From Spizellomyces punctatus DAOM BR117 (lineage: Eukaryota), in NCBI GenBank assembly GCA_000182565.2, contig KQ257473.1: a stretch of 31,888 nt of DNA, one strand, 5' to 3'. The translations under genes were made by a program, and so were the position numbers. This document shows positions 23,940-29,447 of this stretch, one piece after another. Position 1 is the stretch's first letter; each line of letters begins with the position of its first letter. A model generated the notes under the pieces. The model did not search any database. It saw only the letters and a list, made by a program, of their open reading frames with translations, and was not told where the DNA came from.

Positions 23940-24089
23940 ATCATGAGAATGCCGCTCTGGTGCCGAGGACCTCGCCCTCCCGACAAAAACAACATAACCC
24001 CTTGCTACTACTATATTGCTATGATCGCAGGTATGCATTATCTTTGTATTTTCCCACACGGATTATCCAGTCTAATTATTCTTAGTATC
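23940..24089 (+). repeat. Copy A of a two-copy dispersed intergenic element (possible small spliced gene or ncRNA)
   Basis: ATCATGAGA-ATGCCGCTCTGGTGCCGAGGAC...TATGATCGCAG|GTAT...TAGTATC, homologous to 29120-29287. Confidence 0.65.
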
Positions 24090-25099
24090 TGAACATCCTC
24101 TGACTAAGAATTTCGGAATCAAGGGCTTAGTAGGATTTCTCTCGTGTGGTGGGCTTAGTTACCCAGTTAGAACAACCGTAATGTATTGCATGTGTAATTG
24201 GGCCTAGTGGTAGTTGGTTGGTTGTAAGGAGGGAATCACTTGGCTTTTCCGAACCAGTTATCGCTGGTTTATTCCCTGGTGTAGTAGCTAGTGCCAGTTT
24301 CTGTCACCTCTGCACTACTGTAGGAGCATAATAGCAAGAAAATCATCTTGGAGCATAACAGAACACACACAGCCGTTGCCTCCAACCTCTGCTCTAACGG
24401 GCTCAGAGACGAGTGGTCAAAGGCCTTACTGCGTGCATTATACAGGTTGATAGTCCAATCTGGAAGTAGGTTGAGTTTGCCATCACTGTGGAGGTGGGCA
24501 TATTGGTTCAACGATAGTGAGCATTGTGGGCGAAAGTCTCAAGAAGAGTCGCCGCAAGTTGTGGGATAAGGCTTATGGCGTGATTGTTCTAGTATGACCA
24601 CCTTGTATGCATAGCAGAAGCGAACGACATTGCCACCATGAAAGACTGTAACCAGTCTCTCCTCCATTCTCGGGTCTACCGTTCAAGTACACCCTAGGCC
24701 CTTATATCCAACTTGTGGCCTACTGGTAGTTCCTACAGGACCTTGGTTGTCCTCTTAGAATATACATTATCAAGAGATATGACATATCAGGGCAATTCTC
24801 CTTTGAAGCAGGCCTAGCTTTCCTTTAAAGACACGGACGTCAATTGATGGCAAAATCACTCATAATTCTTCCTTGCGTTTGCGTAGTTTAGTGTAAGTCG
24901 TAGAAACTTTAGCCTGGCCTTGAGCTCGTCATTAAAATCTGAGAAAGTCAATGGTGCGGGTGCTAGAGAGACGGGAGACCGACCACCAGCCAGAGCACCA
25001 GCCACCGAGCTGACGTGTTGACGGTATCAAATAACAAGGGCGCCCTTCAAGTGTTAGCTCAGTGACGACTCTAAAATCTCTTCTTGAAAGGACAACACA

Positions 25100-26116
25100 A
25101 TGTCCGAGTTTGGAGATTTCGTAGCGACGGATGGCTCTAACCCAGCCAATACCTCTGCATTTCTGACATCAGATGATCCTGCCGCCGATTTTCTGGCTCG
25201 AGAACAGGCTATCCTCGGAGCCGACGCTGCTTTATTCGGCAACGACCTGGTTGCGGCCACCCCAGCACCCGCTGCGTCTGACGCTGGGTTTGGAGCATTT
25301 GGAGGTGCGCCTGACAGCAGCTTTGTCATTCCAAATGGGTCGGACGTTGAGTTTGCCAGTGAGGTTGGTACGGACGAGATTCGCAGCTGTACATGCGTAA
25401 GCGGACGTTGTTAACAATCGGTACAGTCTGGATTTGGCGACGCCCCTTTCGCAGGAGATGCTGCTCCGTTGCCTTTTGAGCATACTGGTGCATCGTCGGT
25501 CGCCAGCTTCGGGAGTGTACCGGTACAGTCGCGTGAACCTGAACCGGAGCCGGAAATCGTTAGGTACAGCTTTACCGCGCGTCTCTCATGGTTTGGATGG
25601 TGCACTTACTTACCTGTGCCCATGTCAGGCAGTGGAGGGAAGACTTCAATGCACGTGTGGCCGAACGTGACTCTCGATCGAAAGCTAAACACGCAGAGAC
25701 GTTGAATGCTGCGAAGGAGTCGCTGGAGCGATTTTACGCGGAATACAACGATAAGAAAACTAAGAGCATCAACAGAAACAAAGAACAAGAAAAGAATACC
25801 ATAGCTGAACGAGATGATACCACTAGTGGAACCGTTTGGGTATGTTTGGCGGCTAGTCCTGTGCAGGACTGAAGCTCATCACATCACTCAACAGGATCGG
25901 GTTGTCAAACAAATTGAGATGACCACTCAGGCGTCATCTGCGACGTCCAGTAAAGGCAAGGTCGATCTAAAGCCTGGCAGACTTGCCGACGAGAAGAGCA
26001 AAGATGCTAAAGCGGCGAAGCCTGTGACGAAGACGCGTGATACCACTCGCATGAAGCAGTTGCTGATGTCACTGAGAAAGGACTCTAAAGCTCCAGGAGT
26101 AGAAACTGCAGCTTGA
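25100..26116 (+). CDS. CLC1: Clathrin light chain, multi-exon
   Basis: DDPAADFLAREQAILG, EPEIVRQWREDFNARVAERD, GTVWDRVVKQI and RMKQLLMSLRKDSKAPG. Confidence 0.92.
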
Positions 26117-26260
26117 TACAGTTATATGTTGTCCCAATCATGTCGGTACATCATTCCAAAAATATAAAATCGGTCATTCATGTCTATGGAATGTATTTGA
26201 TCAAGCATTGTTTCCCTACATATCACACCTCAATTCAGCTACCAGCAATTGTAACAAATT

Positions 26261-28799
26261 TTACAAAGTAGTAGTGTCGCCGTCCGATTCCGGTGCGGTC
26301 AATGTGACGTCTAGAATCGCAGGATTCTTAAAAAGCAGCGGCGTCCATCGCAGTTTATCTTGTTGAATGGTAGGGAAGCCCTTGCTGTCCAAGTGTGCAA
26401 TGTATTCTGCAACAACTTGAGTAGGATATCGTACTACATAGTTCCCCGAAGCATTTTTAACAAGCATGTTCAGGAGGTGAAGCGTATGAATGATGTCGTC
26501 AGGGGTCATGCATGTGACTTGGCTCAATCCTGAGAATGACAACCATCAGCAGAATGTTTGTCAACGAGGGTAAATGATTGTAGAATTATCTTACTCTCAA
26601 TGGAAAGAACATTTCCTGAACATTCAGCTAAAGCTCTCAGTACAGTCCTTCTCCAATAACGACGGTAGCTCAACAAGCCAAGATCTGACAATGGTTTCTC
26701 TGGAGACCCAGTTCGGCCCTCTTTCCTGGAAAGGAGATAACCTGGAATAGTGTTGCTTTAGTGGGTCCATTTCCCTCGCGCTCCAACGTCGAATGTTCAT
26801 GGTAGTCCCACAACTTACTAAATTCGATCAACAGACTCCCATATCCCTTCCGTTGGAAAATGGGCAGCGTCACAATGCAAGAAAGGTTGTAGTTCGCAGA
26901 AGAACGTTTTTCCTGGACGAAATCCTGGTCAGACCTATTACCACATCGATCCGTCTGACAGGTACTCAATTATGCACCTTAGAGAAATACCCTACAAAAT
27001 GACAACCTTTCTCGTCGTTCTCCGTCATAATATAGAAGAGGAATGGCTCCACATCGTAATACAATGTTTTGTGGTCTAGGAACATCTTTGCAAGTAGGCA
27101 AAGATTTTGGCAATATATCTGGAGGGTGTTTTAGCACTGTCTTGGTATGTCTTCAACACCCTACCAACCTTGTTCTTACGTCCATCCACCTCGAACACAG
27201 ATATATTGCCATGTCGATATATCTCATCGCCCGGAGGATGCCGAAGTGGGCACTTCGCCTGTGTAGCTCTGGTGTTATCATCCCACCGTGCATGGAGTAC
27301 AGGCAAAGCTTCACTTGTCTTCGACTTACCTTATGACGCCCCGCCACATACTGACTTTTCATATACTTGAAACAATACTCGCATATATATATGAGCGGCT
27401 GTCCGTTGTACTCCTCCGGGTATGGCGCCGCGTACCAAGTATCAATTTCCCACACCCCGAGTTGGATTGTGTTGATCTTTGGTATAACTGGCGCATAAAA
27501 GAATTCATCATCACCATTCTCTATGCCCCCTTCTTTCATAGCGTTGACGGTCGGAAGAGTTGCAGTTTCCTGAAAGATCGCCGTGTATGAGCATTGCACA
27601 GAAGCTACTAGACCCCGCTCGGCTCTAACCTCAGCTTCTGCGCGCGCTCTTCGAAAATTGAGTCGGTCTGCAGCATCTGGCCGACATTGTGATGTATCCG
27701 CATCCGCGTCTGACAAACGCCCACCGAAGGGGAGATGCTTGATTCGGTCTGCCTCCACACGATCGACATTTACTTTTTTCCTTCTATTTTTGCCTCCAAG
27801 GAGAAGCTTTACTCGGGGTCGCGAAGTCGATAGTGATTGCAAGGGAGCGGCGCTAACTTCCTTATGGGAATTTGCGGTTCTCAGTCTTTTCCTCGATAGT
27901 TCACCAACCATTCCTACATATTGCTCCGGCCTTTTCGTCTTCTGCCAGATAGCCTTATCCGCTTCAGCAGTATGAACTGTGGAACTCCTTCTTCGCTTGT
28001 TTGCAGAATTCATGCCAGTAGCGTTCAACATATATTGGTCTCGTGACGTACTACCACTGCCTGGACATTCTGGATCAGGAGCAACCGCTGTGTCCCCTCG
28101 AGGTTTTCGACCAGGTGTCCGCCTTCCCTTACAAATAGGACAACGCCAGGTGCCTTCGGGTATCTCTGTCAATTTTGGTGACGCACAAAATGTGTGACAG
28201 CCGCGATCGCAGTCATCGCAAAGTATCAGTTGATCCTTCGTATTTTATATGAGATACAGATGCAAACATCACAAATCCATAGTTGTCGCAATACCTCCTG
28301 TTGGAAATCACCGCAGACCATGCAGTGTTTGCAGTCCTGGCATTCCCAGTCGTATCTGCGTACCGCCTCTCGCGCCTTTTCCGTCAGGTTTAAGCAGCTT
28401 GGATGTTCTAAAAATGGAATACATGGTAGAAAACGATTTTCTGGCATCTAAAGATGATGCATACCACTGATATTACAAGTAGTACAACTCAAGAGCTCTT
28501 CATGGCAGGATTCCCTATTCTGTTGCGCGGTTCCGCCGCAGCTTTGACAAAACGGGCTGTATAGAACGCGCTGGGGTCAACGTGCATCACAGGTAGTGCT
28601 GCCCACAGGAAATCGAAGCATGCTGACTTACCTTTTAGCACCTTCGTGAGGATTATCCCCCTAGTTGAATGCATAATAGCGCAGACGTTAACACATGCCA
28701 CACAGCAAAGGTGGCTAAGAAGGTACCAATCTCACACACCTTTGCCTTCCTTGACGAAAATCTTGTGGACACTCTAGCTTCTGCGTGGGAAGAGGTCAT
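26261..28799 (-). CDS. MYST-family histone acetyltransferase with N-terminal double PHD finger (KAT6/Sas3-Mst2-like), multi-exon
   Basis: PHD motifs HPSCL...[12 protein letters not shown] and [13 protein letters not shown]...WRCPIC. MYST motifs [61 protein letters not shown] and PEKPLSDLG. Candidate ATG at 28799. Confidence 0.92.
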
Positions 28800-29119
28800 T
28801 CGGGTCACCAACTAGCACGGATGGTATGGAGATCCGTCGAGGGCAGTTTTGTGTGTCAGCGTGTTCGTGCTGGAATCGAATCATGTGACCTTCATTAGAC
28901 TTTTTTTAACAATTGGTTGCAACCAGCGCGCATATTGTGTGGGGAAATTCCAATGATGGTCCTATGGCATTCCAGCCATTTGTAGTGTGACATCGTAATG
29001 AAGATCAACATGAAAGACAGACGGAAACATTGCAGCTGCGATACGGATGTATCAACTTTGTTTTCTACGCACATCTCTCTCCCCAATCTTGTTATTCATC
29101 ATCGAATTTCATCAAAACA

Positions 29120-29287
29120 ATCATGAGAAGAATGCCGATCTGTCGCAGAGGACTTTTGCCCACAATCACAACAATGAACGTGGGTGATCCGCGCAACGCT
29201 CGTACTGGAAGCTCCTACGATCGCAGGTATTTCATTGAAGAATATCCCCATGCTTCTTGTCCAATCTGGTCCTCGTCTGCTAGTATC
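29120..29287 (+). repeat. Copy B of the two-copy dispersed intergenic element, just upstream of RER1
   Basis: ATCATGAGAAGAATGCCGATCTGTCGCAGAGGAC...TACGATCGCAG|GTAT...TAGTATC. Confidence 0.65.
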
Positions 29288-29447
29288 CAGATTACAACCG
29301 ACAATGCGGGTTGGTTGGCGCCAGACCCAAGTGGTTCGATCCAAGCGGGTGGAATTCACTATTGTGTTGGCCAAATGTTTAAACAAACTTCCGACGCAGC
29401 GCTGTCCTCCTCCGAATCGCGTTGAACGCCGTAACGTGGAGTTCCAG

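Follow-up and report, generated by a model that had tools for sequence, protein, structure and literature searches.

The window, a 31,888-nucleotide (nt) stretch of the Spizellomyces punctatus DAOM BR117 genome (124001-155888 of contig KQ257473.1), contains two intergenic stretches that a first-pass annotation had paired as homologous elements, at 23940-24089 and 29120-29287. The genes around them, annotated there as housekeeping genes, match Pfam families as such: PP2C and clathrin light chain (CLC1) beside the first stretch, and a MYST zinc finger with PHD and Rer1 (RER1) beside the second. Searches of the 24.1-Mb genome and comparison with published elements lead us to state with confidence that both loci are ghost Spu-1 elements, that is, non-autonomous, TA-flanked inverted-repeat transposons that lack a Fanzor gene and contain a transcription unit of their own. 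The first (copy 1) is whole; the second (copy 2) is old and most likely dead.

The collinear blocks lie where they had been reported. The first aligns at 27 of 31 bases plus a 3-nt indel and is followed by CTAYGATCGCAG then GTAT, by TCCArTCT, and by TAG then TATC, with introns of 55 nt (24031-24085) and 57 nt (29227-29283) between donor and acceptor. The local alignment of the two copies scores 62, against a mean of 18.7 and a maximum of 35 in 2000 dinucleotide shuffles (0/2000 reach 62) and 40 for the best unrelated tile of the window, so that the similarity is significant against shuffled DNA. Plain blastn gave only an expect value (E) of 0.25, while family profiles find copy 2 at E 2e-13. 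The 11-mer GCGCAACGCTC is indeed present at 23907 and 29191, but the two occurrences belong to different parts of the element and coincide by chance: in copy 1 it lies in the 5' leader, whereas its counterpart in copy 2 falls in a part of exon 1 that a 9-nt deletion has removed from copy 1. Nor are there merely two copies of ~150 nt; the homology covers 628 bp in copy 1 and ~430 bp in copy 2, and copies occur at no fewer than 143 places, at least.

Ghost Spu-1 was described by Saito et al. 2023 (PMC10432273). That report gives 134 ghost loci with ~550 nt between 30-nt repeats, CA upstream and no Fanzor frame. Its 75-nt ghost omegaRNA scaffold, which lies over the right repeat, works with SpuFz1, whose target-adjacent motif (TAM) is CATA; SpuFz1 cutting is supported by four other ghost scaffolds in the same paper and by more in PMC13434818. 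Copy 1 spans 23688-24315 (628 bp), with CATA on its left and TA on its right, and comprises the following features.

23684-23687, + strand: CATA left flank, equal to the SpuFz1 TAM, its TA read as the duplicated target
23688-23715, + strand: left inverted repeat, its first base replaced by flank-like sequence, with TACTGT at both ends
23847-23853, + strand: TATA box of the ghost transcript, recognised from sequence and kept in the family; family read depth climbs from ~23890
23943-24030, + strand: exon 1 from ATG to splice donor, 88 nt here and 97 nt in most copies, with a short frame
24031-24085, + strand: intron, GT..AG, 55 nt, spliced in family RNA
24086-24243, + strand: exon 2, running into the guide scaffold, with frequent frameshifts among copies
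24244-24317, + strand: ghost omegaRNA scaffold, covering the right inverted repeat (24288-24315) and TA
24318-24332, + strand: predicted guide of 14-15 nt from flanking DNA, by analogy with PMC10432273

The repeats at 23688-23715 and 24288-24315 carry 2 mismatches each against the family ends. No Fanzor frame is present, the longest frames being under 100 amino acids (aa). Compared by eye, 24244-24317 is identical to the published Ghost1 scaffold at 71 of 74 bases, and it adopts a two-stem fold (z -2.07 against shuffles). The left repeat, TATA box and ATCATGAGAATG block of copy 1 recur in the first record of the ghost file of PMC10432273. Given the scaffold identity and this common interior, copy 1 is a ghost Spu-1 element, and it is structurally whole: repeats of ~30 nt stand at both ends, the interior is free of long frames, CA(TA) lies upstream and the scaffold covers the right repeat.

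Copy 2 was analysed with profiles built without it, and is read as follows.

28931-29011, + strand: left end, decayed and of an older ghost subtype, with CATA flank at 28931-28934, by profile (E 2.2e-6) and alignment
29064-29075, + strand: TATA-box position, mutated away, by alignment to type-B ghosts
29123-29226, + strand: exon-1 homologue, 104 nt, phase 2, profile E 2e-13
29227-29283, + strand: intron homologue, 57 nt, with no junction among the joints listed
29307-29343, + strand: 5' part of the omegaRNA scaffold, 32/37 columns matching the ghost locus L054
29357-29367, + strand: terminal CACTA (29357-29361) and TATTGTGT, by sequence

The left end is the only significant match in the window for the ghost left-end profile, and the core (29112-29287) matches at E 2.4e-13. 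No TATA motif was found at the TATA position. The scaffold remnant scores 51, against a maximum of 29 in 1574 other tiles, and keeps 37 nt of the scaffold 5' part (fold z -1.22); it is preceded by a deletion of ~150 bp of exon 2 and followed by loss of most of the right repeat. TATTGTGT occurs at both ends of the copy (28933-28940 and 29360-29367), and together with the terminal CACTA it would mark the right boundary of the element. Copy 2 would then extend over ~28931-29361 (~430 bp), ending ~87 nt before the inferred RER1 start codon, and it is collinear over ~390 bp with the older copies L135, L131 and L054. Its core is the lowest-scoring real one among the 69 places examined (113/158), and both a DNA search and a 26-nt pattern with 3 mismatches returned, as close relatives, itself alone. 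Under the two-repeat definition of PMC10432273 it would not count as a ghost, because it is without a whole right repeat: the left end is recognisable and the right repeat is reduced to CACTA. The interior and the CA(TA) flank are those of a ghost, while the whole scaffold is no longer there. Copy 2 is a decayed derivative, not an intact ghost member, and is most likely dead, its TATA box and the greater part of both exon 2 and the right end being gone.

These results place the two loci within a large family. A query with copy 1 gave at least 41 matches at 79-100% identity (best 40 of 135 candidates scored). The core 15-mer before the donor was found at 70 places with at most 1 mismatch, versus 2 for a reversed control, the 30-nt end pattern at 247 places, versus 0 for its control, and the exon-1 frame at 143 places in the genome. 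Aligned loci revealed an element of 600-770 bp with ~28-nt imperfect inverted repeats and TA outside both ends; among 65 elements whose end flanks were compared, most have TA at both ends and 49 show TA only. Rightward, the 69 core places continue into a SpuFz1-type scaffold (35), an SPu-3-type end (21) or neither (13). A protein search identified 50 Fanzor loci, and the PF07282 profile 1 locus in the genome. Inspection by eye of the long frames in or near 20 end loci revealed host genes and no transposase, no Pfam scan or transposase-family search having been made. A pair of ends 8.4 kb apart (L062), considered as an autonomous parent, turned out to be two separate ghosts.

Several variants were observed within the family. 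A second ghost subtype (L062, L063, L065, L066, L070, L072) has its left end and first 13 codons in common with the main type. It differs in its intron and exon 2 and in the greater length of exon 1, and its intron too is bounded by GT..AG. At L049, L060, L116, L117 and L134, ghost cores run into a fourth kind of 3' sequence, with neither a recognised scaffold nor repeat, which could belong to yet another element; at L049 a tRNA-like gene lies ~150 nt after it. L078 and L079 are near-identical 10-kb stretches 37 kb apart on contig C3 with one ghost each, either a segmental duplication or an assembly artefact. In 4/65 elements, one of them copy 1, the left end carries a repeat of 6-11 nt of the right flank, where shuffles give 0.1 such elements on average and 2 at most; TA plus 4-9 nt of right flank there replace the first bases of the inverted repeat. 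Such repeats lie at 23686-23691 / 24316-24321 and, in copy 2, at 28933-28940 / 29360-29367 in the window, and at L024, L026, L029 and L120.

The blocks of the first-pass annotation are the ATG, exon-1 and intron part of the ghost unit. Of the options raised there, the third was right: a non-autonomous element that contains a start codon and intron. The family is not undescribed, ghost Spu-1 having already been published in PMC10432273; and in place of a new small host RNA or upstream open reading frame (uORF) family, both stretches are the interior of known guide-RNA transposons. The exon and intron serve the element's own transcript and not the promoters beside it. The inverted repeats, CATA flank and guide-RNA scaffold had been missed. 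Since both window copies are ordinary members of a published family, one whole and one decayed, the claim of a new system falls.

Four sequencing runs were aligned to 22900-30200 at 88% likeness. In RNA run X5, of which ~6% was read and in which first mates match CLC1, MYST and RER1 in sense orientation, + strand depth reached 15,777 over 23876-24119 and 31,917 over 24120-24363, compared with 79 upstream and at most 146 in CLC1. The intron at 24031-24085 was skipped in 223 reads from 12 starts, and 12,011 loose read ends carry the spliced consensus (agreement 0.58). A contig from run X4, which comes from another study under another organism label, is spliced at 24031-24085 too. Runs X1 and X2, which represent one sample, gave no spliced joints in this region and added copy diversity only. 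Ghosts give abundant sense, spliced transcripts, and the intron proposed from the letters alone is confirmed by junction reads in family RNA. Over copy 2, depth in run X5 was 0.2-1.1, with no junction among the joints listed; the caveat raised at the outset, that the stretches might be untranscribed fragments of a known transposon, therefore describes copy 2, which is nearly unread, and not copy 1, which is a whole element. The word "intron" has 0 occurrences in the main text of PMC10432273. A ghost intron, a spliced host transcript and a TTA flank (see below) found no account in the parts covered of PMC10432273, PMC3627910 and bioRxiv 2023.08.09.552727, nor in those of PMC11423790, PMC13434818 and PMC10530073. 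Ghost transcripts that end in a guide scaffold suggest how a eukaryote makes omegaRNAs without a nuclease gene.

Some observations weigh against the ghost reading or its reach. By profile, the copy 2 scaffold remnant attains only E 0.044, and 13 of the 69 core places lead into neither recognised end, and one place (L127) resembles a chance 15-mer. The reads, accepted at 88% likeness, come mostly from other copies, 22/286 carrying the copy 1 base at 24022, and depth beyond the right end of copy 1 is 1.9, so they demonstrate transcription of the family and not of copy 1 as such. The run data across 22900-30200 yielded no called start, end or poly(A) tail of a transcript. The library has a strong 3' bias, seen in CLC1 as a depth of 0.5 at the 5' end, which makes the low copy 2 depth weak evidence of silence. 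No empty site appeared among the listed joints, so that TA duplication and homing stay putative.

The second right end of ghosts is the 3' end of a distant Fanzor (L082/L113), whose identity to the SPu-1 proteins is ~24%; the beginning of the SPu-3 consensus published in PMC3627910 is matched by L113. This SPu-3-type right end was found at 25 places, one of them the SPu-3 Fanzor gene itself, and at least one SPu-3-type ghost is among the ghost records of PMC10432273. The left flank was tallied for the 43 ghosts with a type-a left end, 5 SPu-3-type, 8 type-A and 18 type-B right ends being left out because their loci lack such a left end. With a SpuFz1-type right end, CATA precedes 20/24 and TTA 0; with an SPu-3-type right end, TTA precedes the same left end in 16/19 (e.g. 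L006, L010, L015, L018) and CATA in 0. The association between flank and guide end is strong (Fisher p 1.4e-10), with the SpuFz1-type set being a sample of a larger family and related copies not fully independent, though each flank is a separate site. What is new here is that the left flank follows the guide end on an unchanged ghost left end. Full SPu-1 genes have a CATA flank in 14/15 cases, and TTA stands before the sole SPu-3 left end of the genome that looks native.

Removal of a candidate 63-nt GT..AG intron near the C-terminus would leave the SPu-3 gene (L113:1543-3600) with a whole frame of 607 aa that includes D, E and RD motifs; a SPu-3 protein motif was not found in the covered supplements of PMC10432273. 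At L113:1280-1520, the SPu-3 left end consists of the right repeat of a type-B ghost in reverse and, after it, type-B promoter sequence that is also reversed, and the SPu-3 element therefore looks mosaic. A truncated SPu-3 relative lies at L138:901-1160; its left repeat is a mirror image of the right end of SPu-3 and has TTA before it.

The flank pattern suggests action in trans by two Fanzors, of which that of SPu-3 is predicted to have a TTA motif; the parts of the literature covered yielded no test of that motif. We lean, if without great assurance, towards a model in which the ghost cassette is a modular, spliced guide-RNA unit serving two distant Fanzors. A swap of right end would switch CATA to TTA, so that the borrowed Fanzor sets the site at which a ghost is inserted or kept, and one intron-split SPu-3 gene would serve ~24 guide loci with a TTA TAM and an omegaRNA of ~150 nt. 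If true, this would constitute genomic evidence for a Fanzor maintaining non-autonomous elements in trans, and would add a further compact nuclease with a predicted motif.

The flank pattern, and that pattern only, could instead reflect the target preferences of two transposases reading the two right repeats, without selection by a Fanzor. This is a genuine contender that we nevertheless consider rather less probable than not. The right repeats do differ between the SpuFz1-type and SPu-3-type classes, and the first base after the right TA is A/T in 18/19 SPu-3-type versus 14/24 SpuFz1-type ghosts, which resembles a two-sided TTA(W) preference; the one full SPu-3 gene, moreover, has CATA and not TTA on its left, though at a reversed ghost-B end. 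Against such a preference, the motif sits at the left end, which the two classes have in common, and in SpuFz1-type ghosts it is the TAM measured for the nuclease (PMC10432273); the TTA before the one native-looking SPu-3 left end points the same way.

Exon 1 of most copies reads MRMPLWCRGPRPPD..., and might encode a functional micropeptide (MRMxxWCRGPRPPD...) conserved as such. Tests on 66 copies (the 69 less copy 2, a chance match and a near-duplicate) make this unlikely. Exon-1 indels are multiples of three in 18/36 distinct events versus 48/205 elsewhere (p 0.002), and the net frame is kept in 54/66 copies, but the triplet indels fall in AAC/CTA repeats, which confounds the excess. Synonymous variants number 36/121 (0.30) against 0.26 expected, with similar values in all three frames and 5 variants that make stops; exon-1 substitutions are without sign of amino-acid selection, in keeping with the nucleotide-level conservation that the first-pass annotation had proposed. 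Although the N-terminal motif is common to both ghost subtypes, it is not kept in copy 2, and the peptide has no Pfam match. Exon 2 frameshifts freely, so the C-terminus is not fixed. None of the 143 exon-1 places lies within a frame of more than 209 aa, a parent gene having been sought among them and none found. The exon-1 ATG has the same context as the Fanzor start codon. This context is similar to that in SPu-1 Fanzor genes, as is the promoter of type-B ghosts to theirs, and the exon-1 frame is therefore best read as the putative leftover start of an element gene.

A shade more doubtful is that the host has co-opted copy 2 as an RER1 promoter, 5' leader intron or uORF. In this copy, which is 72% identical elsewhere, the ATG and both splice sites are preserved, and an open frame extends from 29123 to 29425 whether or not the intron is removed. 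The intact blocks are, however, how copy 2 was found, and simulations of uniform decay at its identity leave 16 matching bases in a row 18% of the time; no second close copy exists, and the low depth without a listed junction points against use, weakly in view of the 3' bias.

It is very improbable that the core began as a host small RNA or uORF cassette, with copy 2 as its source, that ghosts captured: copy 2 is unique at BLAST level, and the core is unmatched inside the 30 Fanzor loci tested except for a neighbouring ghost in L101, which leaves its origin unexplained, but copy 2 is itself framed by ghost parts, with a CATA-flanked left end on one side and a scaffold remnant and terminal CACTA on the other, and these element ends largely refute capture from the host. 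Covariance models gave 0 Rfam matches at E up to 1 among 4227 families in the window, ARAGORN found 0 transfer RNA (tRNA) genes there, and the fold of exon 1 does not surpass that of shuffled sequence (z = 0.86 and -0.13). Likeness to a small nucleolar RNA, small nuclear RNA, riboswitch or ribozyme was dropped on the Rfam and folding results.

Elsewhere in the window, a coding tandem repeat (19503-20077; 72-bp unit, ~8 copies) lies inside a 762-aa frame (18811-21099), and G+C at 30500-31888, the contig end, is 31-37% versus ~48% elsewhere.

We propose that the ghost interior is an RNA-polymerase-II-type unit consisting of a TATA box, a short exon with a leftover ATG, a spliceosomal intron, exon 2 and the omegaRNA scaffold. 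Each ghost would be a parasite of Fanzor elements, moved by some transposase. Its TATA promoter would drive a spliced, messenger-like RNA, from whose 3' end the guide RNA may be cut and loaded on SpuFz1 made elsewhere. The complex would cut empty alleles bearing CATA and the flank, and repair from the occupied allele would keep or restore the ghost; SPu-3 may play the corresponding part in maintaining SPu-3-type ghosts. Homing is offered as a hypothesis in PMC10432273 and PMC10530073, in both of which the role of Fanzor for its transposons is stated as open. With the finding that flank follows guide, the idea of action in trans can be put to a single clear test, namely which TAM the SPu-3 Fanzor has; the finding may also help to explain the weaker SpuFz1 activity of more divergent ghost scaffolds (PMC13434818).

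Among known systems, copy 1 is most directly comparable with ghost Spu-1 as described in PMC10432273: in both, 30-nt repeats enclose ~550-600 nt that hold no Fanzor frame, CA(TA) stands upstream, a scaffold of 74-75 nt covers the right repeat, and the interior is the same. That paper gives CA upstream of ghosts, whereas the SPu-3-type ghosts found here have TTA. The SPu-1 and SPu-3 Fanzor1 elements (Bao and Jurka 2013, PMC3627910) likewise have terminal inverted repeats and a putative TA duplication; they encode the nuclease and ghosts do not. SPu-1 has the scaffold type of both window copies, and type-B ghosts share their promoter region with some SPu-1 copies. For SPu-3, PMC3627910 gives 2 copies with one exon; here its 3' end was found at 24 further places, together with the candidate 63-nt intron. 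The Chlamydomonas Fanzor1 elements CRe-1, -2 and -3, of the Helitron2 type, have variable-length target duplications just after a fixed short motif (PMC3627910). A similar trait, a 6-11-nt duplication, is seen in 4/65 Spu elements, copy 1 among them; unlike CRe, 49/65 show TA only, and the ends are terminal inverted repeats. We know of no partner transposase for ghosts. Miniature inverted-repeat transposable elements (MITEs) of TA-inserting DNA transposons are short, high-copy and non-coding, with inverted repeats and TA at both ends. Ghosts resemble them in all these respects; unlike MITEs, they are strongly transcribed and spliced, carry a guide RNA and have a one-sided flank motif.

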